Below, in pieces: positions 1 through 33,166 of a stretch of 51,080 nt of DNA (the first letter of the stretch is position 1; every line of letters begins with the position of its first letter). The notes under the pieces are model-generated. The model saw nothing but the letters and a program-made list of their open reading frames with translations, was not told the origin of the DNA and did no database searches. Made by a program: the position numbers and the translations under genes. Origin of the DNA: Nemertoderma westbladi (taxonomy: Eukaryota; Animalia; Xenacoelomorpha); contig JAUCBJ010003254.1 of assembly GCA_032718475.1 (NCBI GenBank), positions 1-51,080 on the forward strand. The letters run 5' to 3'.

Positions 1-1
1 C

Positions 2-2548
2 AGATAAACGTGTTTCATTATTAATGGAGAAATGTTGAAAATCATGATCTTCACTCCAACGAAAGATTCCCTTAAAACTACTCTCAGAAGTAAAAGCACT
101 TTTACTTAATGCACAATGAAGATAATAATTATCTTTCACCAATGGGAATGGTATACCTCTGCCGTTATTATTTGGTTTACTTATAACGTATATGTTAGAA
201 TCTTCCATATAATCAATACTACGAATAGAGAAGCAACCTGGAATGAGTGCCTCCAGCAGTTTAGCTGCTTGGGTCTCTATTGGTTCATCTTCCAAATCTA
301 ATTCTCTATGAACATCTTCCAATTTCTCACGAAGATTAGTTACATACATTCCCCTTTGCTTTGCTGTACATCCAATAAATACAACATTCTTAAGGTATTT
401 GAGAAATATAGATTGTACAGGAGTCTTATGTTTATCTGCATTAAGAATACTAAGCATGATACGACAATGCATGACTGAATATGATACCATCTGTAAACGA
501 AGTCCATCTGGACATGGTAAATCTGGTTCTATGTTAATTTTCCAAGACTTTCTTCCAATAGGTATAGATGGAAGTATAAGAGGCATTTCATCCTGATAGA
601 TATCCTTGAAAGATAAGTTTTCAGATTCAGTCTCTTCAGTACCCTTGTTTAAAATTCTATCATGAATCTTAAAGCAGTCACTGATTTCCATATAAGTACT
701 ACCGTGTAAACTTTCGCGAATTATAGCATTTTCTGGAAGATCCCAATATTCCAGGAGTCTATCAATATATACCTTAGCAACATGTCGTCGACCATGACGG
801 ACATATTCCAGTACATCGGGACGATACTCCAGAGTGAGTCTATTAGACTCATCCAATGCAAGGTAAGGCTCGCTAACCTGATAATATATAGGGTCAAGAT
901 CGACCCAACAAGACGACAATCCATTATAGTTTCCCATGGCTTTAATAGTGCGAAAACCATGTTGATATGTTCCTTGGCGTGCAGTGCGCAATATATGTGG
1001 AGATATAGTTGCCATTGAAAATATATCTTGATCTGTTACAGGATTGTCAGGGGATGCAGGATTGTTTGGGAGATGGAAAAACTCCTTATTTGTACACTTG
1101 TGTTTCTTGCATATTAGGATGGACAACCCTTTGTCGGGATCGACAACCATACCCCCTGTTGCCTCTTTACCAAGTTCCTTGAACGAATAAGGCCAGTCTA
1201 GTCGAAAAGACTTTACGTGTTCAGGTTTAGCATTGAATATCTTAGGAATAGGAAAGCTATTTGCAAGGAAGTGATTAAAGCTTAATGGTTTACATTCCTC
1301 GATATACTGGGTGCAACCAAGACCACATACAACACTAGGATAGTAGCCCTCATTAAGAAGTTTTACTAACTTTCCAATATCTAGATCATTCATGGTATTT
1401 TTGTACACCATAAGTTCCTGGGTAAAGTCATTCACCACTGTCTTAGAAGGTTGAAGGTGTTGGCTGTTGATAATAAACCTCCAGCTGTCCCTCAATGTCT
1501 CAGGAAGCAAGTCCAGTAAATCGGAAGGTTTACCTAAGAATCCAGGAACTTTATTCATAAGACCACTATATATAAATGATGGCCAGCCACAACTCCAAAG
1601 AATTTGACTCTTTTCCGACCTTTTCAAATATGTGGCACATTCTTTGCAAAGAACATAATCATATTGATGAGATTGCAGGAGATATCCATATTCACGATTA
1701 CAAGTTTTATTTGACAATCGTAGATCAAGTGGATATGAAGATGTTTTGATACGTCGGCAATTTTCACATACATTTTCATTATGAAGGATTACTATGTCAT
1801 TGCCATCAATATCCATTGCTTCCTGATCATCATCATCCTCACTATCTGGCTCATCGTCACTACTATCTGACTCTTCATCAATGATTTCTGGAACCTCAAA
1901 GTTACGCATAGAATCATACTGAAGAGCAGCCTCATCCTCAAAATCACTCCAATCTAAAGCATCATCGCACTCAAGGTTTACTTCTGGTTGCAAAGCAGCT
2001 GGTTCTGCATTTGGAGATGCTGCAGTTGGTTGTTCTGTATTCCTAGATGTTGCAGTCGGATGGAGTGGTATTGGATTTATATTTGATGAACCTTGATCCA
2101 TTGACTGAAAACCATAATAATGTTGATGCTCATGGTGATGAGCAATCAAAACCTCAGGTGTACCAGGCATGCCTACGTGCTGAAAATGGATTCGACCAGA
2201 AATAGATTCTGAAGTAAGAACCACAAATAATCTACGATAGACTAAGCCAAGAGCTTCCAATATAATAGAATTACCAAAAACAGATTGATTAGTCAACTGA
2301 TTGACCAAATCATCATAAGTACGTGGTTCATACTCAGATGGACAATATTTAGGTGAAAATTTATCCTTATTGGAACGAAGAAATGTTTTTGCCCTTATCC
2401 TCATATCCCTTGGACATTCTGCTATTGTAGGATCAGAAATAAGGATTGCATTAAACATACAATTCCCATCACCTCGTACATCTTTAAGGATTAGGCCCTT
2501 AGAATTAGCTACCCTCTCGAATGCAGCACGAACATTTGTCTGTAGAGC
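2..2548 (-). CDS. Exon 13 (open past the left edge, ~849 codons): intact OTU cysteine protease domain, acidic tract, CxxC...CxxC and further Cys-rich region; candidate Helitron-like giant protein
   Basis: Acceptor TTATTATTATAG| with AG at 2550-2549. Manual translation ALQTNVRAAFERVANSKGLILKDVRGDGNCMFNAI...FGNSIILEAL...HQHYYGF (Cys codon 2459-2461, His codon 2120-2122), then EESDSSDDEPDSEDDDD, CENC...CKEC, WSCGWPSFIY, CGLGC. I found no stop down to base 2; the ORF is probably missing from the track because it has no stop inside the window. Confidence 0.9.
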
Positions 2549-3323: not shown

Positions 3324-3360
3324 TACTTACCTGGCACAGGGGTTAACCATGATCAATGAA
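3324..3360 (+). pseudogene. U1 snRNA 5' fragment (3'-truncated)
   Basis: TACTTACCTGGCACAGGGGTTAACCATGATCAATGAA matches the metazoan U1 5' end (ATACTTACCTGGC, stem I, GATCA loop I). AT-rich sequence follows, with no further U1 stems or Sm site. Confidence 0.7.
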
Positions 3361-8006: not shown

Positions 8007-8468
8007 CATTGATGGGACCCCGCCCGATGTTGAAGGCTGCGGAATGGCACTAGAAGGGTGAGTTGGTGCAGCCGGCGGGCGGGGTGTTGGTATCGATGGG
8101 CATGGTGTTCTAGTACGTAAAGTTCTGGGTGACGCACTGGGTGCGTGTCGCGTTGCACAAGGCGCAGTTGGCAACACTCCAGGTACGGAACTTGAAGTGT
8201 TAACAACCGCTGTTCTCGACTTATCGCCGGATGGACAAGGTATCGAGTTAAGTCCAACATCCGGTGTTGGACTTGATATAATATCCCTGCGTGATAAATC
8301 AACGTAAGGAGACAGTCGCCGCGATATAAATCGGGGAGGAGTATCCTTGCCAGACTTAGAATTAAGTCGGCGAATAGAGTCCTCGTCGAACCGAAATATG
8401 GGAGAATCTGTACGAGGACTCATAGTTGGGGTGGAGAAAGGGGTACAGGTTCCTGAACCAGTTGGATC
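8007..8468 (-). CDS. Exon 12 (154 aa, Pro/Ser/Thr/Arg-rich linker)
   Basis: TTTTAG|GAT...ATG|GTAAGT; 462 nt, phase 0-0; DPTGSGTCTPFSTPTMSPRTDSP...GGVPSM; GC-rich island; overlaps track ORF 7887..8423. Confidence 0.8.
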
Positions 8469-8529: not shown

Positions 8530-11500
8530 ATGTGAAACGCAACTTACTCCTTAGTTGACTTAGTTGGATGGGCAACTTAGTTGACTTAGATGGATGTGCA
8601 ACCTAGTTGACTTAGATGGATGTGCAACCTAGTTGACTTAGATGGATGTGCAACCTAGTTGACTTAGATGGATGTGCAACCTAGTTGACTTAGATGGATG
8701 TGCAACCTAGTTGACTTAGATGGATGTGCAACCTAGTTGACTTAGATGGATGTGCAACCTAGTTGACTTAGATGGATGTGCAACCTAGTTGACTTAGATG
8801 GATGTGCAACCTAGTTGACTTAGATGGATGTGCAACCTAGTTGACTTAGATGGATGTGCAACCTAGTTGACTTAGATGGATGTGCAACCTAGTTGACTTA
8901 GATGGATGTGCAACCTAGTTGACTTAGATGGATGTGCAACCTAGTTGACTTAGATGGATGTGCAACCTAGTTGACTTAGATGGATGTGCAACCTAGTTCA
9001 CTTAGATGGATGTGCAACCTAGTTCACTTAGATGGATGTGCAACCTAGTTGACTTAGATGGATGTGCAACCTAGTTGACTTAGATGGATGTGTAACCTAG
9101 TTGACTTAGATGGATGTGCAACCTAGTTGACTTAGATGGATGTGCAACCTAGTTGACTTAGATGGATGTGCAACCTAGTTGACTTAGATGGATGTGCAAC
9201 CTAGTTGACTTTGGATGTGCAACTTAGTTGACTTAATGTGCAAGTTGGATGTGCAACTTAGTTGACTTAGTTGGATGTGCAACTTAATTGACTTAGTTGG
9301 ATGTGCAACTTAATTGACTTAGTTGGATGTGCAACTTAATTGACTTAGTTGGATGTGCAACTTAGTTGACTTAGTTGGATGTGCAACTTAGTTGACTTAG
9401 TTGGATGTGCAACTTAATTGACTTAGTTGGATGTGCAACTTAATTGACTTAGTTGGATGTGCAACTTAATTGACTTAGTTGGATGTGCAACTTAGTTGAC
9501 TTAGTTGGATGTGCAACTTAGTTACTTAGTTGGATGTGCAACTTAGTTACTTAGTTGGATGTGCAACTTAGTTACTTAGTTGGATGTGCAACTTAGTTAC
9601 TTAGTTGGATGTGCAACTTAGTTACTTAGTTGGATGTGCAACTTAGTTGACTTAGTTGGATGTGCAACTTAATTGACTTAGTTGGATGTGCAACTTAGTT
9701 GACTTAGTTGGATGTGCAACTTAGTTGACTTAGTTGGATGTGCAACTTAGTTGACTTAGTTGGATGTGCAACTTAGTTGACTTAGTTGGATGTGCAACTT
9801 AGTTGACTTAGTTGGACGAGCAACTTAGTTGAATGTGCAACTTAGTTGACTTAGTTGAATGTGCAACTTAGTTGACTTAGTTGAATGTGCAACTTAGTTG
9901 ACTTAGTTGAATGTGCAACTTAGTTGACTTAGTTGAATGTGCAACTTAGTTGGATGTGCAACTAAGTTGGATGTGCAACTTAGTTGGATGTGCAACTTAG
10001 TTGGATGTGCAACTAAGTTGGATGTGCAACTAAGTTGGATGTGCAACTTAGTTGGATGTGCAACTTAGTTGGAAGTGCAACTTAGCTGGATGTGCAACTT
10101 AGTTGGATGTGCAACTTAGTTGCGATGTGCAACTTAGTTGACTTAGTTGGATGTGCAACTTAGTTGACTTAGTTGGATGCGCAACTTAGTTGGATGTGCA
10201 ACTTAGTTGACTTAGTTGGATGTGCAACTTAGTTGACTTAGTTGGATGTGCAACTTAGTTGCCTTAGCTGGATGTGCAACTTAGTTGACTTAGTTGGATG
10301 TGCAACTTAGTTGACTTAGTTGGATGTGCAACTTAGTTGACTTAGTTGGATGTGCATCTTAGTTGACTTAGTTGGATGTGCAACTTAGTTGACTTAGTTG
10401 GATGTGCATCTTAGTTGACTTAGTTGGATGTGCAACTTAGTTGAATGTGCAACTTAGTTGACTTAGTTGAATGTGCAACTTAGTTGACTTAGTTGAATGT
10501 GCAACTTAGTTGACTTAGTTGAATGTGCAACTAAGTTGGATGATGTGCAACTAAGTTGGATGTGCAACTTCGTTGGATGTGCAACTTCGTTGGATGTGCA
10601 ACTTCGTTGGATGTGCAACTTCGTTGGATGTGCAACTTCGTTGGATGTGCAACTTCGTTGAATGTGCAACTTCGTTGGATGTGCAACTTCGTTGGATGTG
10701 CAACTTCGTTGGATGTGCAACTTCGTTGAATGTGCAACTTCGTTGAATGTGCAACTTCGTTGGATGTGCAACTTCGTTGAATGTGCAACTTAGTTGGATG
10801 TGCAACTTCGTTGAATGTGCAACTTAGTTGGATGTGCAACTTCGTTGAATGTGCAACTTAGTTGGATGTGCAACTTAGATGGATGTACAACTTAGTTGGA
10901 TGTGCAACTTAGATGGATGTGCAACTTAGTTGGACTTAGTTGGATGTGCAACTTGCTAGACTTGGATGTGCAACTTGCTAGACTTGGATGTGCAACTTGC
11001 TAGACTTGGATGTGCAACTTGCTAGACTTGGATGTGCAACTTGCTAGACTTGGATGTGCAACTTGCTAGACTTGGATGTGCAACTTGCTAGACTTGGATG
11101 TGCAACTTGCTAGACTTGGATGTGCAACTTGCTAGACTTGGATGCGCAACTTGCTAGACTTGGATGCGCAACTTGCTAGACTTGGATGCGCAACTTGCTA
11201 GACTTGGATGTGCAACTTGCTAGACTTGGATGTGCAACTTGCTAGACTTGGATGTGCAACTTGCTAGAATTGGATGTGCAACTTGCTAGACTTGGATGTG
11301 CAACTTGCTAGACTTGGATGTGCAACTTGCTAGACTTGGATGTGCAACTTGCTAGACTTGGATGTGCAACATACTTGACTTGGATGTGCAACATACTTGA
11401 CTTGGATGTGCAACATACTTGACTTGGATGTGCAACTTACTTGACTTGGATGTGCAACTTGCTTGACTTGGATGTGCAACTTACTTGCTTGACTTGGATG

Positions 11501-14500
11501 TGCAACTTACTTGCTTGACTTGGATGTGCAACTTACTTGCTTGACTTGGATGTGCAACTTACTTGCTTGACTTGGATGTGCAACTTACTTGCTTGACTTG
11601 GATGTGCAACTTACTTACTTGACTTGGATGTGCAACTTACTTGACTTGGATGTGCAACTTACTTGACTTGGATGTGCAACTTACTTGACTTGGATGTGCA
11701 ACTTACTTGACTTGGATGTGCAACTTACTTGACTTGGATGTGCAACTTACTTGACTTGGATGTGCAACTTACTTGACTTGGATGTGCAACTTACTTGACT
11801 TGGATGTGCAACTTACTTGACTTGGATGTGCAACTTACTTGACTTGGATGTGCAACTTACTTGACTTGGATGTGCAACTTACTTGACTTGGATGTGCAAC
11901 TTACTTGACTTGGATGTGCAACTTACTTGACTTGGATGTGCAACTTACTTGACTTGGATGTGCAACTTACTTGACTTGGATGTGCAACTTACTTGACTTG
12001 GATGTGCAACTTACTTGACTTGGATGTGCAACTTACTTGACTTGGATGTGCAACTTACTTGACTTGGATGTGCAACTTACTTGACTTGGATGTGCAACTT
12101 ACTTGACTTGGATGTGCAACATACTTGACTTGATGTGCAACATACTTGACTTGATGTGCAACATACTTGACTTGATGTGCAACATACTGGACTTGATGTG
12201 CAACTTACTGGACTTGATGTGCAACTTACTTGACTTGCATACTTGACTTGCAACTTACTTGACTTGCAACTTACTTGACTTGTATGTGCAACTTAATTGA
12301 CTTGTATGTGCAACTTACTTGACTTGTATGTGCAACTTACTTGACTTGTATGTGCAACTTACTTGACTTGGATGTGCAACTTACTTGACTTGGATGTGCA
12401 ACTTACTTGACTTGGATGTGCAACTTACTTGACTTGGATGTGCAACTTACTTGACTTGGATGTGCAACTTACTTGACTTGGATGTGCAACTTACTTGACT
12501 TGGATGTGCAACTTACTTGACTTGGATGTGCAACTTACTTGACTTGGATGTGCAACTTACTTGACTTGGATGTGCATGTGCAACATTCTTGACTTGATGT
12601 GCAACAGTGCAACATACTTGACTTGATGTGCAACTTACTTGACTTGGATGTGCAACTTACTTGACTTGGATGTGCAACTTACTTGACTTGGATGTGCAAC
12701 TTACTTGACTTGGATGTGCATGTGCAACATTCTTGACTTGATGTGCAACAGTGCAACATACTTGACTTGATGTGCAACAGTGCAACATACTTGACTTGAT
12801 GTGCAACATACTTGACTTGATGTGCAACATACTTGACTTGATGTGCAACATACTTGAGTTGATGTGCAACATACTTGACTTGATGTGCAACATACTTGAC
12901 TTGATGTGCAACATACTTGACTTGATGTGCAACATACTTGACTTGATGTGCAACATACTTGACTTGATGTGCAACATACTTGACTTGATGTGCAACATAC
13001 TTGACTTGATGTGCAACATACTTGACTTGATGTGCAACATACTTGACTTGATGTGCAACATACTTGACTTGATGTGCAACATACTTGACTTGATGTGCAA
13101 CATACTTGACTTGATGTGCAACATACTTGACTTGATGTGCAACATACTTGACTTGATGTGCAACATACTTGACTTGATGTGCAACATACTTGACTTGATG
13201 TGCAACATACTTGACTTGATGTGCAACATACTTGACTTGATGTGCAACATACTTGACTTGATGTTCAACATACTTGACTTGATGTGCAACATACTTGACT
13301 TGATGTGCAACATACTTGACTTGATGTGCAACATACTTGACTTGATGTGCAACTTACTTGACTTGATGTGCAACTTACTTGACTCGATGTGCAACTTACT
13401 TGACTCGATGTGCAACTTACTTGACTCGATGTGCAACTTACTTGACTCGATGTGCAACTTACTTGACTCGATGTGCAACTTACTTGACTCGATGTGCAAC
13501 TTACTTGACTCGATGTGCAACTTACTTGACTCGATGTGCAACTTACTTGACTCGATGTGCAACTTACTTGACTCGATGTGCAACTTACTTGACTCGATGT
13601 GCAACTTACTTGACTTGATGTGCAACTTACTTGACTTGATGTGCAACTTACCTGACTTGATGTGCAACTTACCTGACTTGATGTGCAACTTACTTGACCC
13701 TTAACTTGATGTGCAACTTACTTGACCCTTAACTTGATGTGCAACTCACATAACTTGATGTGCAACTCGCGACTTGACTTGATGTGCAACTTACTTGACT
13801 TGATGTGCAACTTACTTGACTTGATGTGCAACTTACTTGACTTGATGTGCAACTTACTTGACTTGATGTGCAACTTACTTGACTTGATGTGCAACTTACC
13901 TGACTTGATGTGCAACTTACCTGACTTGATGTGCAACTTACTTGACTTGATGTGCAACTTACTTGACTTGATGTGCAACTTACTTGACTTGATGTGCAAC
14001 TTACTTGACTTGATGTGCAACTTACTTGACTTGATGTGCAACTTACTTGACTTGATGTGCAACTTACTTGACTTGATGTGCAACTTACTTGACTTGATGT
14101 GCAACTTACTTGACTTGATGTGCAACTTACTTGACTTGATGTGCAACTTACTTGACTTGATGTGCAACTTTCTTGACTTGATGTGCAACTTACTTGACTT
14201 GATGTGCAACTTACTTGACTTGATGTGCAACTTACTTGACTTGATGTGCAACTTACTTGACTTGATGTGCAACTTTCTTGACTTGATGTGCAACTTTCTT
14301 GACTTGATGTGCAACTTACTTGACTTGATGTGCAACTTACTTGACTTGATGTGCAACTTACTTGACTTGATGTGCAACTTACTTGACTTGATGTGCAACT
14401 TACTTGACTTGATGTGCAACTTACTTGACTTGATGTGCAACTTACTTGACTTGATGTGCAACTTACTTGACTTGATGTGCAACTTACTTGACTTGATGTG

Positions 14501-15375
14501 CAACTTACTTGACTTGATGTGCAACTTACTTGACTTGATGTGCAACTTACTTGACTTGATGTGCAACTTACTTGACTTGATGTGCAACTTACTTGACTTG
14601 ATGTGCAACTTACTTGACTTGATGTGCAACTTACTTGACTTGATGTGCAACTTACTTGACTTGATGTGCAACTTACTTGACTTGATGTGCAACTTACTTG
14701 ACTTGATGTGCAACTTACTTGACTTGATGTGCAACTTACTTGACACTTGATGTGCAACTTACTTGACACTTGATGTGCAACTTACTTGACACTTGATGTG
14801 CAACTTACTTGACACTTGATGTGCAACTTACTTGACACTTGATGTGCAACTTACTTGACACTTGATGTGCAACTTACTTGACACTTGATGTGCAACTTAC
14901 GTGACACTTGATGTGCAACTTGATGTGCAACTTACTTGAGACTTGATGTGCAACTTACTTGAGACTTGATGTGCAACTTACTTGACACTTGATGTGCAAC
15001 TTACTTGACACTTGATGTGCAACTTACTTGACACTTGATGTGCAACTTACTTGACACTTGATGTGCAACTTACTTGACACTTGATGTGCAACTTACTTGA
15101 GACTTGATGTGCAACTTACTTGAGACTTGATGTGCAACTTACTTGACTTGAAGTGCAACTTACTTGACTTGATGTGCAGCTTACTTGACTTGATGTGCAG
15201 CTTACTTGACTTGATGTGCAACTTACTTGACTTGATGTGCAACTTACTTGACTTGATGTGCAACTTACTTGACTTGATGTGCAACTTACTTGACTTGATG
15301 TGCAACTTACTTGACTTGATGTGCAACTTACTTGACCTGATGTGCAAATTACTTGACTTGATGTGCAAGACTTGA
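8530..15375. repeat. Intronic satellite with GATGTGCAAC core; homogeneous blocks of 26-, 25-, 17-, 22-, 21- and 23-bp units
   Basis: Units read directly: GATGGATGTGCAACCTAGTTGACTTA (26), GTTGGATGTGCAACTTC (17), TTGGATGTGCAACTTGCTAGAC (22), TTGATGTGCAACTTACTTGAC (21), CTTGATGTGCAACTTACTTGACA (23). Confidence 0.97.
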
Positions 15376-15401
15376 TAGTTTACTGACTTTGTATAATATA
15401 C

Positions 15402-15775
15402 TAGGTGACTGGTGACTTCGTATATTACACTAGGTGACTTGGTATATTACACTAGGTGACTTGGTATATTACACTAGGTCACTTGGTATATTACACTAGG
15501 TGACTTGGTATATTACACTAGGTGACTTGGTATATTACACTAGGTGACTTGGTATATTATACTAGGTGACTTGGTATATTACACTAGGTGACTTGGTATA
15601 TTACACTAGGTGACTTGGTATATTATACTAGGTGACTTGGTATATTACACTAGGTGACTTGGTATATTACACTAGGTGACATGGTATAGTATACTAGCCG
15701 ACTTGGTATAGTTTACTGGGTGATTTGGTATAGTTTACTAGGTGACTATACTTGATATATTATACTAGGTAAGTT
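15402..15775. repeat. 22-bp minisatellite
   Basis: Unit GGTATATTACACTAGGTGACTT, about a dozen good copies plus degenerate flanks. Confidence 0.92.
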
Positions 15776-15816: not shown

Positions 15817-16152
15817 CCCAATTACACGACCCCCTCGCTCCCGTCGTGGACGAACGATAATCGGTTTTGGACGACGGGATCGAGTGCGAGGGGGGGTCTC
15901 CATCGCGGACATCTGTGAGAATGGTGCTACGATGTCGGGCGTCGATTGGTTTGTCTCAGAATAAACGCCAGGAGAAACACCCACGACAGGGGAGAAGGTG
16001 GGTGTAGATCCCGCTAGTGGTGAGAAGATGGGACTTCCCGCTCGAGGGGAGATCGAAGGTATCACCAAAGGTGAGAGCCTAGGGAGCATGGAGCCTCCCA
16101 AAATGATACGAGATCGCAACGCATCTAAAGGGATAGGCGAAGCGGTGCTATC
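15817..16152 (-). CDS. Exon 11 (112 aa, SP/TP-rich with basic C-terminal end)
   Basis: TTTTTAG|GAT...GGG|GTGAGT; 336 nt, phase 0-0; DSTASPIPLDALRSR...RPRRERGGRVIG. Confidence 0.8.
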
Positions 16153-16648: not shown

Positions 16649-16762
16649 AATGGAAGGTGTTGATTCTCCATGGCCGAACTCTATAAGCGGTGTAATACAG
16701 ACCTCCGATACAGCCGGGGTCATATCAATATCCTCTGTCTGCTCCCTAGACTCTTGCAGGAC
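16649..16762 (-). CDS. Exon 10 (38 aa, diverged class-C exon)
   Basis: GTTTAG|GTC...ATT|GTTAGT; 114 nt; VLQESREQTEDIDMTPAVSEVCITPLIEFGHGESTPSI; start and acceptor context resemble exon 7. Confidence 0.7.
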
Positions 16763-16899
16763 CTAAACAGCAATATTATATAATTCATAAATGAGAAAGT
16801 CATTTTTGGTACATTGAAGTGGTACATAGTAATTAAATTGTGGTATAACTAACTAGCGAAAAATACCAGGCGACCACATTAAGAGCTGGAACGCAGAAC

Positions 16900-17900
16900 C
16901 TGGTTTCAAACTTCCTGTTGCATGTGGGTGCAACGGGAGGGAATAACATGTGGGTGGAAAGGGGGGGAATTTCATGTGGGTGTAACGGGATGGACTGGAT
17001 AGTGTGCAAAGGGAAGTTAAACATTGGTGGATCAGGATTGAGTTGCAGGTGGGGTATGGGAGGGAGTTACAGATAATTGGAACGGGAAGGAGTTGCAAGT
17101 GAGTGAAACGTTTTTAGTTACAGTTGGAATGGGATGGAGTTACAGGGGGTGATACGGGATAGAGTTACATGTGGAGTAGATGGAACGGGATAGAGTCAGA
17201 GGTGGGTGGAACGGGTGCGAGTTACAATTGTTTCGAACAGGAGAGAGTTTTACAGGTGATTGGAATGGGAGGGAGTTACAAGTGTGTAACGAGACGGAGG
17301 GGAGGGGGGGAGTTACAAGTGGGTAGAAAGAAAACGAGAGACAGGTGGATGGAAGGGGAGAGTGGGGGAGTTACAGGACAGTGGAACGGGAGGGAGTTAC
17401 ATGTGAAAAGAAAGGGAACGAGTTTCCGTTGGGTAGAAGGTGGGGGGGGGGGGGGGGGGGGGGGCTACAGGATGATGGAATGGCATGGTGTTTAGGTGGG
17501 TGAAACAGAGGAGGGGAATTGCAGGATGGTGTAAGTTACAGGTGGGTAGAAAGGGAACGAGTTACAGACAGATGGGTGGAAAGTCAATGAGTTACAGGTG
17601 GATGGAAAGGGGACGGTTTACAGGTGGGAGAAACGGGAGGGAGTTACAGGTGGGAGAAACGAGAGGGAGTTACGGTGGGGGGGGGGGGGGGAAATTTACC
17701 AATGAGTTGAATAAGGTAAAGTTGAATAGGAATGAATTTAAACATGTGGAGTGAAACAGGAGTGAGTTGAATCAGGTTGAGTGGAACCGGAGTGAGTTCA
17801 ATCAGGTGAGTAACAGGATGGGAAGAGGAGTGATTTAAATCACGTCTATTGGAACAGGACAGGAGTGAGTTGAATCATGTGGAGTGGAAAAGGAGTGAGT
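16900..17900. repeat. Degenerate G-rich repeat (~25-bp unit, then ~30-bp unit) with poly-G tracts
   Basis: Recurring GAGTTACAGGTGGGTGGAACGG-like units, long G runs near 17442-17464 and 17677-17691, then GAGTGAGTTGAATCA...GTGGAAC units. Confidence 0.8.
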
Positions 17901-17925
17901 TTGTAATACAATTAAGTAAACTAAC

Positions 17926-18171
17926 CATAGATTCTGGTTCGTTCTGGCGGCCGGACTCGGCTACGCTACTCTCGGCGGCCTCGATATCGAACATCTCGAC
18001 ATCTTGTGGATCTTCCATAAGTTCCGCCTCATCCATGTTGTCCCGGTATATACCGTAACGCTCGTGGAAGATTCTCATCGGGCAGGTGCCCCGGTTATGG
18101 TTCCTCTTGCCGCATCGGCCCTTGCAGTAAGAACATGCTGAGCGCCCCTTACGTTTAGCGGGTTTAGATAA
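17926..18171 (-). CDS. Exon 9 (82 aa, zinc knuckle 3 plus acidic segment)
   Basis: TTTCAG|TTA...ATG|GTTAGT; 246 nt; LSKPAKRKGRSACSYCKGRCGKRNHNRGTCPMR...SGRQNEPESM. Confidence 0.85.
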
Positions 18172-18442
18172 CTGAAATTAAAATAATCATTTAATGAATT
18201 TTAATTAATTATTATATTAGTTATTATTATGTCCCTATATACAGTAGATAGTACTGGTAGTGAAAAAATTTATATTGTTATGGTAATGACAAACAATGAC
18301 AGTAATTCTCTTTGTTTTACCGGCACTAAATTCTACAGTAATTTCAATTACATAATAAAAGAAGATATAGTAAATGTAACTTAGGAACCATTTTTCGCAA
18401 ACAAATAATTCTGAATAACACTAATTATATATATTTACTAAC

Positions 18443-18616
18443 AATCTTGGGGCGGCAATACGGACGGCCGGACTGGATTGGATCCGCTGCTCTACTTCGC
18501 ATAGAATCCACGGATCCAAGACTACAAACATCCGAACCTTCGGACATCGAATCTCCTATCATCGCTATGGCGTCGTCTAGAACTGATATGAGTTGTTTCC
18601 TCCTGCAGGACGTTTC
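18443..18616 (-). CDS. Exon 8 (58 aa, class D, copy 2)
   Basis: TTCCACAG|GAA...ATT|GTTAGT; 174 nt; ETSCRRKQLISVLDDAIAMIGDSMSEGSDVCSLGSVDSMRSRAADPIQSGRPYCRPKI. Confidence 0.75.
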
Positions 18617-18849
18617 CTGTGGAAAATGGTAATAAAGAAATAAATAAAACCGGACCGGTACGGGTGAATATATATCTTATTAAATTACAATTACAAACTA
18701 TAAAGGAATAAAATAATATACAGATATTTAGATTAATCTTAGAGACCGGGTATTAAATACTATTGAGTCTAACTATTCTGGAACCGAGAATTCCTTTATG
18801 AACGGCCCCACATTATTTATACAAATATTATATTATTAAATAAACTTAC

Positions 18850-18975
18850 AAGAGGCGGCTGAAGAGCCGAACGGCCGGACACAGTGGGGAGAACGACAGG
18901 CAGAGATACGGCGGTGAAAACTTCCGTAGCTACCGAAATCTGATCCTCCTCTCTTACTAAAGCTTCCTGCAGGAC
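18850..18975 (-). CDS. Exon 7 (42 aa, class C, copy 2; an alternative in-frame acceptor would start it at 18966)
   Basis: GTTTAG|GTC CTG CAG|GAA...CTT|GTAAGT; VLQEALVREEDQISVATEVFTAVSLPVVLPTVSGRSALQPPL. Confidence 0.75.
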
Positions 18976-19405
18976 CTAAACAATAATAAAATAACGTTTG
19001 GAACTATACTAAGGTGGGTTAATAAATACAATAAAGGTAAAATAAAAGTTCCATTACTGAAATATAACTAGAGAGAATTATTAAAATAAATTATACATAG
19101 CAAAATATATAAATTGAGATAAGTCGTCAAGTAATTGGGTAGTCAGAGCGGTAAATAAGTCACTCGGAATTAACCCATTTGTTTTGTCATCAGTTTATAT
19201 ATTAATTAGCAACCGCATATAGACGAACGCAATATTTATATATATGATAGAAATATATTTAGTGTTCAAATTGAATAAGATGTGATTTCTATGATCGGGA
19301 CTGGGATTATAATTTCCGGCGTGGTCCCAGTTATTCGGAACTACCGGATAGGAATCCCGTTGTAGCACTAATATATTATAGATCAATATAATTAAATAAA
19401 CTCAC

Positions 19406-19744
19406 CATCCGCTCTGGGTCATTCTGGCGGCCGTGCTGGGCAGCACTGCTGCCGATTCCTACGTCAACGTCTACCATTTCGACGTCCTCTCTGACGATTC
19501 CCGCGTCAACGTTTACCATTTCGACGTCAACGTCTACCATTTCGACGTCCTCTCTTAGAAATCCCTCTCTCTCTCTCTCTCTTTCTATGAGAAGACCTTC
19601 GTCCATGGTCTGAGCTGTAATGTCTATGAGAACATGGTATTTTCTCATGACGCAGGTTGTTCTGGGGTGGTATTTCTTCTTGCCGCAACGCCCCTGACAG
19701 TAGGAACAAATAGGGCATCCCTTACGTTTGCGGGCTTTCTTGAA
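19406..19744 (-). CDS. Exon 6 (113 aa, zinc knuckle 2 plus acidic repeats)
   Basis: TTTCAG|TTC...ATG|GTGAGT; 339 nt; FKKARKRKGCPICSYCQGRCGKKKYHPRTTCVMR...HGRQNDPERM. Confidence 0.85.
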
Positions 19745-19930
19745 CTGAAATAAAAATATATAATTTAATTAATTTAGTTTTATTTTGTCCCAATATTAAT
19801 ATTGTAGTTATGAAAAACAACGACAGTAATTTTATTTGTTTTACCGGCACTAAATTCTATAGTAATTTATGTTACAAGAAAAACAAATTATATTAATTTA
19901 ATTAAAAGGTAAATATATAATATATCTTAC

Positions 19931-20104
19931 AATCTGGGGGCGGCAATACGGACGGCCGGACTGGATTGGATCCGCTGCTCTACTTCGCATAGAATCCACG
20001 GATCCAAGACTACAAACATCCGAACCTTCGGACATCGATTCTCCTATCATCGCTATGGCGTCGTCTAGAATCGATAGGGGTTGTTTCCTCCTGCAGGACG
20101 TATC
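19931..20104 (-). CDS. Exon 5 (58 aa, class D, copy 1)
   Basis: TTCCACAG|GAT...ATT|GTAAGA; 174 nt; DTSCRRKQPLSILDDAIAMIGESMSEG...SGRPYCRPQI. Confidence 0.75.
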
Positions 20105-20342
20105 CTGTGGAAAACGGTAATAAAGAAATAAATAATACCGGACCGGTACGAGTGAAAATATATCTTATTAAATTACAATTACAAACTATAAAGGAATAAA
20201 ATAATATACAGATATTTAGATTAATCTTAGAGACCGGGTATTAAATACTATTGAGTCTCTATAAGCTATACTGGAACCGAGAATCGCTTTATGAACGGCC
20301 CAACATTATTTATACAAATATTATATTATTAAATAAACTTAC

Positions 20343-20462
20343 AAGAGGCGGCTGAAGAGCCGAACGGCCGGACACAGTGGGGAGGACGACAGGCAGAGAT
20401 ACGGCGGTGAAAACTTCCGTAGCTACCGAAATCTGTTCCTCCTCTGTTGCAGCAATAGCTTC
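20343..20462 (-). CDS. Exon 4 (40 aa, class C, copy 1)
   Basis: GTCCTACAG|GAA...CTT|GTAAGT; 120 nt; EAIAATEEEQISVATEVFTAVSLPVVLPTVSGRSALQPPL. Confidence 0.75.
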
Positions 20463-20789
20463 CTGTAGGACATAAACAATAATAAAACAACAGTAGATAT
20501 TTACAACAGATAAAATAAACAAGCAACTCCTTAGTAATATGATATCAGCCCTAATATAAATACGGCAATTACGTTTCCATAAAATTAATATATATAATAT
20601 CTTAAGATTGTATGAGACCTCAAGGTAAATAAGTTAAAATTAAATTATTAAATGGTGACAATCAAAATAACATTTTATAAAATAAACAGATATAAATCAT
20701 ACAGTACGGTCATCCGTTATACACACTGTTATACAATGGAGTCCCAAATACAGTGAAGTGATATTGTATATGGGATAGAGTTAACTAAC

Positions 20790-21269
20790 CATCGGTTCCG
20801 ACTCTGTAAGGCGGCCGGACTTGGTCGACATCGACCTCGGAATGAACGCGACGTATCTGTCACCGTCCAATCCGATATGGATGGCCCCACCTCGTCTCCT
20901 TGGGGGGGCGCAGTAACAACTGGGCGCGTTTCGTTGCTGCGCCCGATGGACCGTAATCTCAATCTCCTCCATGTCTCTTATGGCCTCCAGGTTGATGTCG
21001 TTAACCTGGCAATCATCCGCTGCTAGTGAAAGTAAGTAGGCGGCGAACGATTGCGGCCCTCCCGTACGGAAGAGCCACTGCCGGGAATACTTGGCCGTTC
21101 TCAGCGACATGAAGTCGGCCACGTGTTGTTTCAGATAGGAGGCTGATATCCCCCAGCCCGCAGCCGTTGAAACCGCAGATAACTGCGCTAGTGGATGGTT
21201 GGGTATGTCGACCACATCCAGGTTGAGATCGTCCGCGACCTGGCGGAACCAACTCGTTGAATTGGCGAC
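20790..21269 (-). CDS. Exon 3 (160 aa): degenerate, probably inactive OTU-fold domain
   Basis: TATTTAG|GTC...ATG|GTTAGT; 480 nt. Aligns by eye to the exon 13 OTU: FRQVADDLNLDVVDIPNHPLAQLSAV vs FERVANSKGLILKDVRGDGNCMFNAI; NDINLEAI vs NSIILEAL; IHIGLDGDRYVAF vs VLIAHHHEHQHYYGF. Confidence 0.8.
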
Positions 21270-21349
21270 CTAAATAATTTAAAAATAATAGATAGAAGAG
21301 AAAAAATAGAAGACAAATGTAACTAATATGTAAGATTCAATGAATTAAT

Positions 21350-23413
21350 GGGGGAGGGGCCGGGGTGAAGAGTCAGGAGAGACCCTGGCTGGAGTGCTGG
21401 GAGGGTGGTCGGGGTGAAGAGTCAGGAGAGACCCTGGCTGGAGTGCTGGGAGGGTGGTCAGGGTGAAGAGTCAGGAGAGACCCTGGCTGGAGTGCTGGGA
21501 GGGTGGTCGGGGTGAAGAGTCAGGAGAGACCCTGGCTGGAGTGCTGGGAGGGTGGTCGGGGTGAAGAGTCAGGAGAGACCCTGGCTGGAGTGCTGGGAGG
21601 GTGGTCGGGGTGAAGAGTCAGGAGAGACCCTGGCTGGAGTGCTGGGAGGGTGGTCGGGGTGAAGAGTCAGGAGAGACCCTGGCTGGAGTGCTGGGAGGGT
21701 GGTCAGGGTGAAGAGTCAGGAGAGACCCTGGCTGGAGTGCTGGGAGGGTGGTCGGGGTGAAGAGTATGGAGAGACCCTGGCTGGAGTGCTGGGAGGGTGG
21801 TCGGGGTGAAGAGTCTGGAGAGACCCTGGCTGGAGTGCTGGGAGGGTGGTCGGGGTGAAGAGTCTGGAGAGACCCTGGCTGGAGTGCTGGGAGGGTGGTC
21901 GGGGTGAAGAGTCTGGAGAGACCCTGGCTGGAGTGCTGGGAGGGTGGTCGGGGTGAAGAGTCAGGAGAGACCCTGGCTGGAGTGCTGGGAGGGTGGTCGG
22001 GGTGAAGAGTCAGGAGAGACCCTGGCTGGAGTGCTGGGAGGGTGGTCGGGGTGAACAGTCAGGAGAGACCCTGGCTGGAGTGCTGGGAGGGTGGTCGGGG
22101 TGAAGAGTCAGGAGAGACCCTGGCTGGAGTGCTGGGAGGGTGGTCGGGGTGAAGAGTCAGGATAGACCCTGGCTGGAGTGCTGGGAGGGAGGTCGGGGTG
22201 AAGAGTCAGGATAGACCCTGGCTGGAGTGCTGGGAGGGTGGTCGGGGTGAAGAGTCAGGAGAGACCCTGGCTGGAGTGCTGGGAGGGTGGTCGGGGTGAA
22301 GAGTCAGGAGAGACCCTGGCTGGAGTGCTGGGAGGGTGGTCGGGGTGAAGAGTCAGGAGAGACCCTGGCTGGAGTGCTGGGAGGGTGGTCGGGGTGAAGA
22401 GTCAGGAGAGACCCTGGCTGGAGTGCTGGGAGGGTGGTCGGGGTGAAGAGTCAGGATAGACCCTGGCTGGAGTGCTGGGAGGGAGGTCGGGGTGAAGAGT
22501 CAGGATAGACCCTGGCTGGAGTGCTGGGAGGGTGGTCGGGGTGAAGAGTCAGGAGAGACCCTGGCTGGAGTGCTGGGAGGGTGGTCGGGGTGAAGAGTCT
22601 GGAGAGACCCTGGCTGGAGTGCTGGGAGGGTGGTCGGGGTGAAGAGTCAGGAGAGACCCTGGCTGGAGTGCTGGGAGGGTGGTCGGGGTGAAGAGTCAGG
22701 AGAGACCCTGGCTGGAGTGCTGGGAGGGTGGTCGGGGTGAAGAGTCAGGAGAGACCCTGGCTGGAGTGCTGGGAGGGTGGTCGGGGTGAAGAGTCAGGAG
22801 AGACCCTGGCTGGAGTGCTGGGAGGGTGGTCGGGGTGAAGAGTCAGGAGAGACCCTGGCTGGAGTGCTGGGAGGGTGGTCGGGGTGAAGAGTCAGGAGAG
22901 ACCCTGGCTGGAGTGCTGGGAGGGTGGTCGGGGTGAAGAGTCAGGATAGACCCTGGCTGGAGTGCTGGGAGGGAGGTCGGGGTGAAGAGTCTGGAGAGAT
23001 CCTGGCTGGAGTGCTGGGAGGGTGGTCGGGGTGAAGAGTCTGGAGAGACCCTGGCTGGAGTGCTGGGAGGGTGGTCGGGGTGAAGAGTCAGGAGAGACCC
23101 TGGCTGGAGTGCTGGGAGGGTGGTCGGGGTGAAGAGTCAGGATAGACCCTGGCTGGAGTGCTGGGAGGGAGGTCGGGGTGAAGAGTCTGGAGAGATCCTG
23201 GCTGGAGTGCTGGGAGGGTGGTCGGGGTGAAGAGTCTGGAGAGACCCTGGCTGGAGTGCTGGGAGGGTGGTCGGGGTGAAGAGTCTGGAGAGATCCTGGC
23301 TGGAGTGCTGGGAGGGTGGTCGGGGTGAAGAGTCTGGAGAGACCCTGGCTGGAGTGCTGGGAGGGTGGTCGGGGTGAAGAGTCAGGAGAGACCCTGGGTA
23401 GAGTGATGGGAGG
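21350..23413. repeat. 49-bp G-rich minisatellite, ~42 copies, in intron 2
   Basis: Unit GGGGTGAAGAGTCAGGAGAGACCCTGGCTGGAGTGCTGGGAGGGTGGTC; period 49 (21362, 21411...). Confidence 0.97.
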
Positions 23414-23531
23414 TATATACTGTATATATTGGTTCACCTAATCGTTTTATGCAGTAATTGTATTAGAAAACCACCGGAACAAAATATAAAATGACAAAGT
23501 AGGTCCACATAATTATATATGATAAACTAAC

Positions 23532-23690
23532 CGGGGTTGGTGGTGTTGGCGGACGGGTAGTACGTCGCCGTGGAGGCGATCTCAACGCGTCGGCGTAGGA
23601 TGGAGATGTGGGGGGACTCTGGCGTCCCACCGTGACGTCGGGCGTCTCGCGTCCTACCGCTACCTCCGGAGTCTCGCGACCCAACTCCAC
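23532..23690 (-). CDS. Exon 2 (53 aa, xGRETP repeats, Pro/Arg-rich)
   Basis: TTTCTAG|GTG...CCG|GTTAGT; 159 nt; VELGRETPEVAVGRETPDVTVGRQSPPTSPSYADALRSPPRRRTTRPPTPPTP. Confidence 0.8.
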
Positions 23691-24269
23691 CTAGAAAGTA
23701 GCAATTTAAAATAATGACACGGAGAGATATATACTTATACTGACTTCAAACAACAAAAAGAGATAGGTTAGGATAGGATACAATAACACATTATAACGAA
23801 ACGATACTAAAGAAATGACCGCACTTCACAGCAACAATAAGGGGTACGTAGGATTTATAGTAATTTAATTAGTATATTAGCACAACATAATACTACAACA
23901 GTAAACAATTTATTATGTTACATTGGATCGAAGTCGTTCTCCTTAAAGCACCGCCCACAGCACATACTTATAGTTATACATTTATAATGGAGCTTTACCA
24001 AAGAAGGTGGAAGGTAAACAGGGAGGTAGACAATGGCTGGTAAAAAGACAATATTGAGTTACAATGGTGGGTTAACAAGATTAAAAGTCAAACTAAGATT
24101 GGTTATCAAGGAGGGTAACTCACGATGGCAGATCTCCTGGTAGATAAGTGGGTTAAATAGTGTGCAGATAATGGTGTGTTTACCAGGTACAGTATGCAGG
24201 CCGGACAAACAGTGTATTAAGCATGCCTCTGTTTAGAATAATACTTAATATAATGTAAATAAAACTTAC

Positions 24270-24518
24270 ACTGGATTCCACCGCGTGTAAACGGCCGGTC
24301 TGATGGACATCGGCGCTTCCCGGAATCTCTACATGAATACCAATGGGTTGGAGACCTGCGCCACCTAGCTCCAACTCTCCACCGGCATCCATGTTCGCGG
24401 CATCTATCCCTTTCCGCAGATGTTCGATGCGCATAGGGCAGGTTGCCATGTTGTGTCGCTTTTTGCCACAGCGACCTTGGCAGTAAGAACAAACACATTG
24501 TTGTTTGCGTTTTGGCAT
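24270..24518 (-). CDS. First coding exon (83 aa, NLS-like PKRK plus zinc knuckle 1)
   Basis: TTTTTTATAG|ATAACGTC-ATG (acceptor 8 nt before the ATG, implying an upstream non-coding exon); MPKRKQQCVCSYCQGRCGKKRHNMATCPMR...TGRLHAVESS|GTAAGT. Confidence 0.8.
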
Positions 24519-24835
24519 GACGTTATCTATAAAAAATAATAAATTAAGGAAATAATTTAACAAAATACAACCGATCTAGAGAATAGCAAACGCATTCATG
24601 TCTATTTATGACCCTATATATTTAATTATGTGCAATGAACAGGCAAAGCCAAACAGAAATAAAAATGAAATAACGGTACTGCTACATACAAAACAGAAAA
24701 CACAACCAAAATTACGATTAGGGCTAGCTAAACATTAATTCGAGCATTACAATGACACAAATATATATACCGGTATATATAAATATATACATACCTGTAC
24801 GAATACGAAGAAATAATACGCTACCAGTACCAGTA

Positions 24836-25470
24836 CAGGTGTAGCAGAAAATTATCACCCTCTAAACAGTTCAAAATTCACCCCCCATTTAATATTCACA
24901 AGGTCTAGCTGTCTTTTTCAGTTTTCACCCCCGGTTAGAATTCACTAGGGTATTTAACGGGGGATGAAAATACTCTGGGTGATTTTTTAGTGAAATGTAA
25001 CCCCCCCTCAGCTTATTCCTACCCCATTACAGCATTATATATATTTTAAATGTCAATATAATTTAAATTCGATATAATTCTAACCCTACAGTTAAATGAA
25101 TAGATGACCGCAGTATCCTATAGGGTGCTGTAGTAGACAGACAAACACACGCTGTCGATTTGTATATAGTAAAGTACTGTAGAGGGTGTATGCGTATGGC
25201 ATATGGTGATTAGGGCGTTCATATTTTAAATTGAATTTTTTTTTGATATATTAATAATCCATAAATTAATAGCGGTAGACCTTAGGGAATTTAACTGGGG
25301 ATGGATCTGCTTAATACGAAAATATATAAATGCAGGGTTGAGTTTTCACTTGAGGGGGATTAAATACACTAGAGAAAATACCCCATGGGAATGAGAATAC
25401 ACTACAGCACAAGGGAAGTTTAAAAATGAAATGATTTTACATAGGGAGTGAAAATTCTCTGATACACCGG
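24836..25470. mobile_element. MITE-like element, TA-flanked, imperfect TIRs (Tc1/mariner-like ends), copy 1
   Basis: Left TA|CAGGTGTAGCAGAAAATTATCACCCTCTA; right end reverse-complemented TA|CCGGTGTATCAGAGAATTTTCACTCCCTA; further internal inverted similarity; no coding capacity. Confidence 0.65.
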
Positions 25471-25598
25471 TACGGGTACCGGTACGTAGAACAGTAGAAT
25501 ACCGTACCTATTAATAAATTTGGTATAAAATATAAGTACCGGACCGGTTCGTACCGGTACCTGCTGACCTGTAGCCCTATCGGCAGCCAGTACCAGTA

Positions 25599-26232
25599 CA
25601 GGTGTAGCAGAAAATTATCACCCTCTAAACAGTTCAAAATTCACCCCCCATTTAATATTCACAAGGTCTAGCTGTCTTTTTCAGTTTTCACCCCCGGTTT
25701 GAATTCACTAGGGTATTTAACGGGGGATGAAAATACTCTGGGTGATTTTTTAGTGAAATGTAACCCCCCTCAGCTTATTCCTACCCCATTACAGCATTAT
25801 ATATATTTTAAATGTCAATATAATTTAAATTCGATATAATTCTAACCCTACAGTTAAATGAATAGATGACCGCAGTATCCTATAGGGTGCTGTAGTAGAC
25901 AGACAAACACACGCTGTCGATTTGTATATAGTAAAGTACTGTAGAGGGTGTATGCGTATGGCATATGGTGATTAGGGCGTTCATATTTTAAATTGAATTT
26001 TTTTTTGATATATTAATAATCCATAAATTAATAGCGGTAGACCTTAGGGATTTTAACTGGGGATGGATCTGCTTAATACGAAAATATATAAATGCAGGGT
26101 TGAGTTTTCACTTGAGGGGGATTAAATACACTACAGAAAATACCCCATGGGAATGAGAATACACTACAGCACAAGGGAAGTTTAAAAATGAAATGATTTT
26201 ACATAGGGAGTGAAAATTCTCTGATACACCGG
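25599..26232. mobile_element. MITE-like element, copy 2 (made by the tandem duplication)
   Basis: Same ends as 24836-25470, offset by 763/762 bp. Confidence 0.65.
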
Positions 26233-27944: not shown

Positions 27945-27952
27945 TATATAAA
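27945..27952 (+). promoter_or_regulatory. Candidate TATA box of the SGNH ORF
   Basis: TATATAAA about 80 nt before the ATG, retained in the diverged paralogous region (43789-43796). Confidence 0.3.
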
Positions 27953-28026
27953 CGGAACGCTGTATCATATTAAATCATCACTTTACCCATTTCTCTCTAC
28001 TTATTTGCTCTATTCTAGTCGATATT

Positions 28027-28644
28027 ATGCCACTACCGGTCCAAGCTATTTGCACTGTAAATCATGTACATGATATTATAATCGTTGGGTCTTCACACCC
28101 AGACCACCTCTTTCGGTACCTTGGCCACAACAACCGCGGCCACAATCGTAACTTTGGTATCTGTCCCACAGTTGCCAAAGTTACCTTTCAGCTGCGGTCA
28201 GGGAGAATATTTGACACCCATAACGCACAGGAGGTAATGGCCAATTGGGACAATAAACCTTGTTTCATTGTTCTTCTATTTGGAAGCAACGATCTGTGTG
28301 TGAGAGACACAGATTACGTTGTCTCCAAATTAAAGACAATGATTCAGGAATATTCTTCCAATGGTGCTTCCTGTGTGTTATGGACACAAATGTTCCCCCG
28401 GTTAATGCGCCCTAAAGGTGTGTCTGTGGACCCCGATTATGATTCACGTCGTGTCGCCACAAATATGCGGATGGCGGCGTGGTTCAACCACGCCCAGAAC
28501 GGCGTTCTAATTAAAATGCAAGGTGCATTACGCCATCGGGTGCAGGGAGGAACCTTGCTGCACTCCGATGGTATACACCTGAGTGACCTTGGCCATGCCA
28601 AACTCTATAGCATTATCCGCCATGCTCTACTTGCTGTGGTGTAG
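28027..28644 (+). CDS. SGNH/GDSL-family hydrolase (esterase), single coding exon, 205 aa
   Basis: Block I IIVGSSH (GDS-like, nucleophile Ser retained), block II LRSG, block III LLFGSNDL, block V SDGIHL, with normal spacing. Confidence 0.88.
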   Translation: MPLPVQAICTVNHVHDIIIVGSSHPDHLFRYLGHNNRGHNRNFGICPTVAKVTFQLRSGRIFDTHNAQEVMANWDNKPCFIVLLFGSNDLCVRDTDYVVSKLKTMIQEYSSNGASCVLWTQMFPRLMRPKGVSVDPDYDSRRVATNMRMAAWFNHAQNGVLIKMQGALRHRVQGGTLLHSDGIHLSDLGHAKLYSIIRHALLAVV

Positions 28645-28812
28645 CGCCCACAGTAAGTCCTAATTTATGAGTGGCTCTTTTAATTAAGGGTCCCACAATC
28701 ACATAATGTAAATAACAGAAATCAGTGCGTCGGAGTGCGGATGTTGGGGGTGGCGGTGGGGTGGGGTTGGATGGGGTGGGGTGGAAGTGGGAGTGGGGTG
28801 GAGTGGGGTGGA

Positions 28813-32478: not shown

Positions 32479-33010
32479 CTGATTTTAGGATTAATCAAAT
32501 ATTGATAGAGATATGATTAGATTTCATTAAAATAAATATCTTAAATCTTTAAATGTAAAATAACAAACACCCACAATGTTTAGAAGCTTTTTTTGGCACT
32601 AAATAAGTACCCATTATACAGGTTGGGACCAAGAAAGTACCCTTTATACAGGACTAATAGTCCGTATAGTTAGACACTCATTGCTGAGTGTGATTGTACA
32701 AACTCAATGATGAGTTTATTGTACATTTTTATACTCCAAGGAGTTTTATCTGTAATATAGCTCTAAGTTATATAGGGTGTTATCCGATATATTTTTTATA
32801 ACAAAACATATAATTATTTAAAATTCATACTCTTATCATACCTTAAGCAATAAATGAATAAATAATTTATTTTTGTGTGTAGTTGTATGTGGGGCTGATC
32901 AAGTCAGTGTAAGTAACTGTATGTTATATGCAGTGTGTGTTTTATTCATTCTGCATTATATTCTCAGTATATGTTCTACTCTATAAGGAAACTAACTAAT
33001 TGTTGTACTA

Positions 33011-33166
33011 TATTCAGTGTGCACTGAATAAATATGGCCTCCATCCGCCCCTATAGCCATACCAATCTCCACCTTTATTATAGTATGATATTCAGTGTGC
33101 ACTGAAAAAATATGGCCTCCATCCGCCCCTTTAGCCATACCAATCTCCACCTTTATTATTCAGTGT
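33011..33166. repeat. 2 x 78-bp tandem duplication with TTCAGTG-TG-CACTGAA hairpin, joined to the satellite
   Basis: TATTCAGTGT starts at 33011, 33089 and 33157; the third instance continues as the 30-bp satellite. Confidence 0.85.

Follow-up and report, generated by a model that had tools for sequence, protein, structure and literature searches.

Among the described rolling-circle transposons, those closest to the gene considered here are the Helitron-like elements (HLE) HLE1 and HLE2, in which an OTU domain lies upstream of RepHel and, in one HLE2 family (HelenSM92), a GIY-YIG domain is found (PMC11417382, PMC6431247). HLE1 runs from TC to a hairpin followed by CTRR and sits between A and T, and HLE2 has sub-terminal repeats and sits between T and T. 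The gene lies in a 51,080-nucleotide (nt) stretch of the Nemertoderma westbladi genome (contig JAUCBJ010003254.1, positions 1 to 51,080; hereafter the window), where 12 minus-strand exons (E1-E12) probably make up the 5' arm of a transposase gene of the Helitron-like (rolling-circle) kind, E12 being predicted to splice in frame to an exon encoding OTU-RepHel (E13). As in HLE1 and HLE2, the OTU domain of this gene precedes a region common to Rep-PIF1-GIY-YIG proteins of 2,200-2,800 amino acids; zinc knuckles (1-4) occur in four of the 36 relatives with an N-terminal arm of at least 150 amino acids, and the element has many diverged copies. Unlike the described HLEs, it has a spliced arm of 12 phase-0 exons and 993 codons, a second, dead OTU domain, and a core sequence common to the ends of most exons. 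As to how Helitrons acquire domains such as OTU and keep the reading frame, this locus displays one route: in a phase-0 array that undergoes duplication, a dead OTU body has been set on an exon end and donor that were already there.

Other systems resemble parts of this arrangement. In Helraiser, the left end is essential, the terminator is often bypassed, and circles carry head-to-tail junctions (PMC4778049). The HelibatN3 exon trap and the read-through capture of Helraiser share with our locus a Helitron with an exon end and splice donor, head-to-tail junctions, and capture by terminator bypass; here, in contrast, the donor unit is repeated inside the element's own gene, with neither the CTAG-to-TC junction nor the 19-bp hairpin (PMC4778049). 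The shuffled one-repeat-one-exon arrays of ROCO and NB-ARC genes in Ectocarpus are likewise in-frame exon modules reshaped by recombination; in those host genes, however, the exons all copy a single folded repeat, whereas here the bodies are disordered or unlike each other, the exons have just a 10-nt core in common, and they probably belong to a transposon gene (PMC3341825). Hexamers that enhance exon-junction-complex (EJC) loading are also C/G-rich, stand at a set distance upstream of the junction, and occur in genes with many long introns, but they contain CUG, act at -16 to -18, and represent a statistical trend, whereas here the motif is fixed (10.1101/459354). No description of such a motif or exon array in a Helitron was found in the literature searched, subscription papers and Repbase being outside the search.

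Exon array and shared exon-end core

Each of the exons E1-E12 (24518 to 8007) has a length that is a multiple of three, and joined they give 993 codons with no stop (Table 1). The exact hexamer CGGCCG occurs eight times in the window, in all eight cases at -28..-23 of a minus-strand GT donor, and E10 carries CGGCCA at the same place, so that nine of the 12 exons have the motif at a fixed donor distance, E10 in degenerate form, and E2, E11, and E12 lack it. A preliminary description of the locus, made from the sequence alone, had placed every copy correctly and had also named the three motif-free exons. Codon shuffles of E1-E12 yield a mean total of 1.2 CGGCCG (4e-4 per site). The sharing extends beyond the hexamer to a core of 10 nt, AGTCCGGCCG, at -32..-23. 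In seven representative exons (E1, E3, E4, E5, E6, E9, and E10; E7 and E8 were excluded as near copies), G at -31 and CGGCC are fixed in 7/7. A weight matrix of the core, built from seven of the nine sites it scores, gives 12.1-16.1 for the nine exon sites and 10.3 for the best other site in the window on either strand. Translated, the motif uses GGC for Gly in 9/9 and CGY for Arg in 8/8, the codon usage that had been reported for it; the preceding codon (Ser, Thr, His, or Phe) ends in C in 9/9. The intron start GTnAGTTTAyTTAAT, previously ascribed to several introns, is confined to four of the 12 (those after E4, E6, E7, and E9).

Splicing was assessed from four sequencing runs that contain the stretch; the results refer to 15 of 42 joints and to the best-supported 24 of 302 loose ends and 40 of 538 letter rows. 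Contigs of run X3 (labelled 'DNA?') skip introns and leave six of 30 bins without cover, all of them intronic. Judging from its joints, we read this run as spliced RNA, processed DNA copies being the alternative. With K denoting zinc-knuckle exons and C and D two types of linker exon, its joints and loose ends, which stem from related copies differing by a few per cent, connect E2-E3, E3-C, E4-E5, D-K, E6-C, E7-D, E9-E10, E10-E11, and E11-E12. Spliced-looking contigs thus support nine of the 12 donors (E2-E7 and E9-E11), in line with the earlier exon model and its phase-0 array; none of these joints and loose ends shows the donor of E1, E8, or E12. A 30-nt micro-exon formed through AG at -31 was rejected: no joint among the 15 of 42 supports it, and E4 and E7 have TG there.

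The same runs reveal many diverged copies (57-543 contigs per run across 5.6 kb, in identity bands from 99+ to <90%), whatever their map positions. Two genomic variants read AGACTGGCCT (Thr-Gly-Leu; run X2) and AGTCTGGCGG (Ser-Gly-Gly; run X4) in the same register, both ending in Glu-Pro-Met like E3, so the site is not invariant, contrary to the earlier claim. One X3 contig has the full core followed by a different 22-nt end of equal length. None of the 40 best-supported letter rows (of 538) falls at a core position.

Some exon ends and starts show further resemblances. A 27-nt repeat in E2 (23614-23683) encodes Gly-Arg plus seven residues, which equals the Gly-to-donor length of the motif exons, with GGA or GGT as Gly codons. 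The end of E12 (8007-8036, minus strand) encodes Ser-Gly-Gly-Val-Pro-Ser-Met, like the X4 variant end minus three codons, and may represent a tenth copy of the end in a shifted position. E4, E7, E10, and E13 begin with a similar 9-nt unit (Val/Ala-Leu-Gln), which a second in-frame CAG closes in E4, E7, and E13; in E4 the first acceptor is lost and the second is used.

Kinship of the exons and conservation of the core

The motif is real, and duplication explains it largely. Exon bodies were compared with the last 33 nt removed (16 pairs tested). E1, E6, and E9 form one knuckle family (E1/E9 bodies, z 6.1; E6/E9, blastn E 9e-16). Within the second group, the bodies of E7 and E8 align (z 4.1, 0/300 shuffles), as do those of E7 and E10 (z 3.5, 2/300), and D aligns weakly with E10 (z 2.3, 10/300); the exon starts in this C/D/E10 comparison share GTCCTGCAGGA, and the links are weak at the protein level (p 0.032, 0.069, and 0.27). 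Across 46 nt, from the last 35 nt of E3 into its intron, the match to E9 is 76%; the likeness to K ends begins near -35, which marks the fusion point. In run X2, one contig passes from an E9-like body into the last 9 nt and intron start of E3 in exact register. To judge from these sequences, E3 combines an OTU body with a knuckle-type end and occupies the K slot of a K-C-D repeat. A tree built solely on the last 36 nt (without support values) groups E4, E5, E10 and E3, E6, E9 as their bodies do. The four unrelated classes of the preliminary description consequently reduce to two lineages and one chimera, and descent by exon duplication explains most of the motif sharing. Between K and C/D bodies, 0/7 DNA pairs gave a significant match, no profile match was obtained, and the best protein p was 0.073; that the K and C/D ends had one ancestor is our inference.

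Just one recent event proved mappable, a tract of 95-100% identity between E4-I4-E5 and E7-I7-E8 (I, intron), which starts ~25 nt inside E4, ends at the E5 donor, and contains two cores; gene conversion is evident in the array. Capture or recombination with breakpoints at the motif, one of the options first proposed, does not fit this tract, which ends at a donor and not at a core. Among the 12 introns, only I4/I7 and I5/I8 align (long introns were compared through their 250-nt ends), and an introner, which would supply many near-identical introns, was rejected on this ground; Helitron-derived introners make up ~1% of classified examples (PMC12130899).

What duplication does not account for is the conserved core. 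In simulations on the tree of the seven representative exon ends, the observed best hexamer (41/42 matches) was reached in 0/2000 replicates under a uniform rate and 11/2000 under gamma rates with 36 nt, and in 0/2000 and 7/2000, respectively, with 45 nt; over all gamma-rate simulations, at most 15/2000 reach the observed clustering. Column permutation for the core hexamer gives P 0.00025. By comparison, the 22-nt stretch from core to donor agrees at 13-16/22 positions among E3, E6, and E9 and mostly at 4-10/22 in the other pairs of the seven representatives. A neutral site would be fixed across the seven exons with a probability of ~0.02, a rough value from the 22-nt tree, whose bootstrap values are 27-61. 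Whole-exon descent with a motif no better kept than its flanks had been named beforehand as the outcome that would overturn a special role of the motif: descent holds for most exons, and the core is nevertheless better kept than its flanks.

The constraint on the core looks nucleotide-level; such a constraint, or shared ancestry, had been favored over a protein site in the preliminary description. Gly-Arg pairs elsewhere in these exons use GGC in 1/8, compared with 8/8 at the motif (-27), and between E1 and E9, seven of 16 shared non-Met knuckle codons differ (our own count). The linkers, in turn, look free at the protein level, given six non-silent and one silent codon differences between E5 and E8. 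All nine sites have one orientation and one distance to the donor, which points to the transcript as the molecule on which the core may act.

Explanations of the core

We consider it the best explanation, with a probability of roughly 40%, that the nine exons arose by repeated duplication of exon and donor units in the arm of a Helitron-like gene and that their core has been kept by RNA-level selection as a positional, splicing-related element. The arm would have grown through tandem duplication of exon-intron units, one fusion would have set the OTU body onto a knuckle-type end, the linkers would have drifted in frame under little protein constraint, and the 10-nt core would have remained under selection. 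It may aid exon definition or EJC loading beside donors of poor exonic consensus and kilobase-long introns filled with satellites; it lies where it just reaches the canonical EJC site (-20 to -24; 10.1101/459354). If it is a splicing signal, the core is an unusually clean, naturally replicated positional element.

Several observations weigh against this reading. E2 and E11 are spliced without a core, and in one X3 contig the donor used lies 79 nt into a D-type exon and has no core, from which it follows that the core is not needed for splicing here. The cores of the two genomic variants match at 7/10 and 8/10 positions only. The last 36 nt of the exons form no hairpin (RNA folding z -0.8 to +1.6 against shuffles, nine exons), and an Rfam scan of 7.5-28.8 kb gave no matches. 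Fly EJC-enhancing hexamers, which contain CUG and act at -16 to -18 (10.1101/459354), differ from the core in both sequence and place. The missing kinship between K and C/D bodies described above belongs to the same side of the balance.

The alternative that survives best, although we regard it as unlikely, is that the core is a DNA junction for the element's own rolling-circle machinery, in which copying from TC (-30) would take in donor, intron, and next body and end after a small hairpin before AG (-31). Modules would be added head to tail, and the core would persist because copying is restricted to units that bear it. AG occupies -32/-31 in 7/9 exons and TC follows at -30 in 6/9, recalling the CTAG-to-TC head-to-tail junction of Helraiser circles; however, the Helraiser hairpin has 19 bp and lies 11 nt from the end, and CTAG occurs in none of our exons (PMC4778049). 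Perfect inverted repeats stand just before AG (arm 6 in E3, 7 in E6, and 4 in E1 and E5), and their sum over the seven representatives is 28 against an expectation of 17 (P 0.004; top-ranking among 62 offsets), in a window that was picked after E3 and E6 had been seen and with arms of 2 in E9 and E10. That relatives carry Rep, helicase, and GIY-YIG, and that the likeness of E3 to K ends sets in near -35, would suit such a mechanism. On the other hand, the recent tract holds two cores inside and ends at the E5 donor, other contigs diverge from the window sequence at scattered points (-41, -39, -22, -15), and the ends track their own bodies in the tree, E3 excepted. The weight-matrix scan also found no further core in the window, on either strand, to act as a true terminus. 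If the core is a Rep junction, the locus would be a self-directed exon-cassette system in a eukaryotic transposon.

Plain descent, in which the core survived by chance from one ancestral exon end, perhaps through short gene-conversion tracts, and has no function, is improbable in our judgment. Most exons are kin, the independent lineages are few, gene conversion is evident in the array, and the cores of E10 and two other copies are degenerate, all of which it accommodates. The shared-ancestry simulations count against it (0/2000 under the uniform rate, at most 15/2000 under gamma rates), as do the 22 nt beside the core, which are near random across groups. Were descent the only cause, the locus would be an ordinary, though large, intron-rich Helitron-like gene.

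We hold it just as improbable that the kept feature is a peptide, x-Ser-Gly-Arg, serving as a cleavage site for the E13 OTU domain or as a modification site, its codons having been fixed through descent and GC bias. All nine window ends have Gly, as do the two variant ends with letters read, the E13 OTU domain keeps GDGNC and His, and E2 repeats Gly-Arg three times. However, the residues beside Gly vary (His or Phe before it; His, Gly, or Leu after it) while silent Cs persist in the nine ends of the window, and a constant distance to an intron is meaningless for a protein. Linker changes affect mostly non-silent codons (six versus one between E5 and E8), and [ST]GR is not enriched in the N-terminal arms of the 36 relatives (three seen, 4.6 expected). 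At P1 and P2, OTU folds are expected to require small residues.

Of still lower probability is the proposal that the Helitron builds the N-terminal arm of its transposase from exon cassettes, Rep using a hairpin, AG, and the adjoining TCCGGCCG within exons as the stop and start of mini rolling circles. Each circle would comprise 30 nt of exon end, the donor, the intron, and a new body, and captured bodies, such as the pseudo-OTU, would join in frame and be spliceable. The broken palindromes of other copies, together with tract ends away from the motif, weaken this cassette reading as well as the protease one. An integron-like, site-specific cassette array was rejected, since the recent tract, which alone could be mapped, ends away from the core, departures are spread from -41 to -15, and E10 and two other copies break the palindrome that an invariant recognition site would keep.

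The probable Helitron-like gene and its surroundings

The downstream open reading frame (ORF), E13, is 849 amino acids long and runs off the window. Its OTU domain (PF02338, 23.7 bits at a cut-off of 23.3, residues 25-129) gives the order expected of Helitron-like elements, OTU upstream of RepHel, and retains GDGNC and the C-terminal His; with these catalytic Cys and His residues, it would qualify as an active OTU protease. The first Met lies behind the catalytic Cys, so an upstream exon is needed. The ORF has 244 relatives at E <=0.001, the best with 26% identity over residues 13-722. In 12 scanned relatives (long or top-scoring among 150 matches; one is a Styela clava protein), PIF1 was found in nine, Helitron_like_N in eight, GIY-YIG in seven, and OTU in five; our own ORF ends at the window edge, and its Rep and helicase lie outside the window or were not found. 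Going by these relatives, the host would be a eukaryote, probably an invertebrate animal. The zinc knuckles in four of the 36 relatives' arms fit E1, E6, and E9 belonging to the same protein. Protein searches gave no matches for E13 residues 250-849 (among longer proteins), for E3, or for the knuckle alignment; an Atlas search with the knuckle exon returned only leads below 0.9, and an alignment of 20 relatives' loci showed no usable pattern. For viral contigs the yield was 0/50, with no matches to the motif-plus-donor pattern, and a metagenome scan found one unrelated OTU gene (1/45 stretches). The repeats upstream of the array yielded no candidate element terminus.

The pseudo-OTU nature of E3, first proposed in the preliminary description, was borne out: on a profile of 12 OTU slices, E3 scores 13.3 bits, whereas neither its reversed sequence nor any of 500 shuffles exceeds 5.3 (hhalign, 86%). 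It carries PNHPL where GDGNC is expected and for this reason fails as an active OTU. Its single-sequence fold (pLDDT 39) was excluded from fold searching. E3 has the highest summed contig depth of the stretch in three of the four runs; with its upstream flank (20790-21350), it lies far above the other exons, which suggests a larger family of such exons, summed depth being no copy number.

Table 1. Exons of the probable Helitron-like gene and neighboring features in the window
Feature	Position	Strand	Description
E1, coding part	24270..24518	-	Start codon, zinc knuckle (K type), acidic linker; core 24292-24301; donor not seen in spliced contigs
E2	23532..23690	-	Pro/Arg-rich; three 27-nt Gly-Arg repeats; no core; E2-E3 junction seen as a loose end in run X3
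E3	20790..21269	-	Pseudo-OTU body (PNHPL for GDGNC) fused to K-type end; core 20812-20821
E3 inverted repeat	20823-20836		6-bp arms
E4	20343..20462	-	C-type linker exon; core 20365-20374
E5	19931..20104	-	D-type linker exon; body akin to C; core 19953-19962
E6	19406..19744	-	K-type exon; core 19428-19437; inverted repeat 19439-19453
E7	18850..18975	-	C-type exon; core 18872-18881
E8	18443..18616	-	D-type exon; core 18465-18474; own donor not seen in spliced contigs
E9	17926..18171	-	K-type exon; core 17948-17957
E10	16649..16762	-	C-related exon; degenerate core 16671-16680
E11	15817..16152	-	Ser/Pro/Arg-rich; no core; both junctions in run X3
E12	8007..8468	-	Ser/Pro/Thr-rich; no core at -28; acceptor in run X3; donor predicted
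E13	1..2548	-	Intact-looking OTU together with the N-terminal region that Helitron-like RepHel proteins conserve; frame still open at window edge; phase-0 acceptor at 2548; splice from E12 predicted
Satellite arrays	8550..15747	.	26-, 17-, 21-, and 22-bp units; fill intron 11
49-bp array	21361-23413		Intron 2
480-bp array	4818-7174		Intron 12
SGNH/GDSL hydrolase ORF	27952..28644	+	Divergently oriented to the array; may be cargo that the same element carries

Base composition differs between the two parts of the gene, E1-E12 having 54.5% GC and a CpG observed/expected ratio of 1.08, and the OTU-RepHel exon (1-2548) 37.5% and 0.51. The SGNH ORF adjoins the Helitron-like gene in the manner of texim, a Helitron-borne SGNH hydrolase (PMC4021074), and may be linked to the element. 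A 177-nt segment occurs at ~27595-27771 and ~43189-43365 (97.7% identical, followed by a stretch of 66% similarity) and shows that an upstream unit is present twice, ahead of the SGNH ORF and ahead of a 122-codon Arg/Gly-rich ORF (44325-44693). The 21-bp satellite of intron 11 (10943-15368) recurs at 28808-30072 and 45622-47379 in one orientation, each time preceding a 30-bp satellite (30074-43188; 47434 to the end). Upstream of E1, a 762-bp tandem duplication spans 24824-26063, with a probable untranslated exon near it (donor at ~24794), and intron 12 contains a 94-nt segment bounded by AG and GT (3331-3424, minus strand) with stops in all three frames, possibly a non-coding or poison exon.

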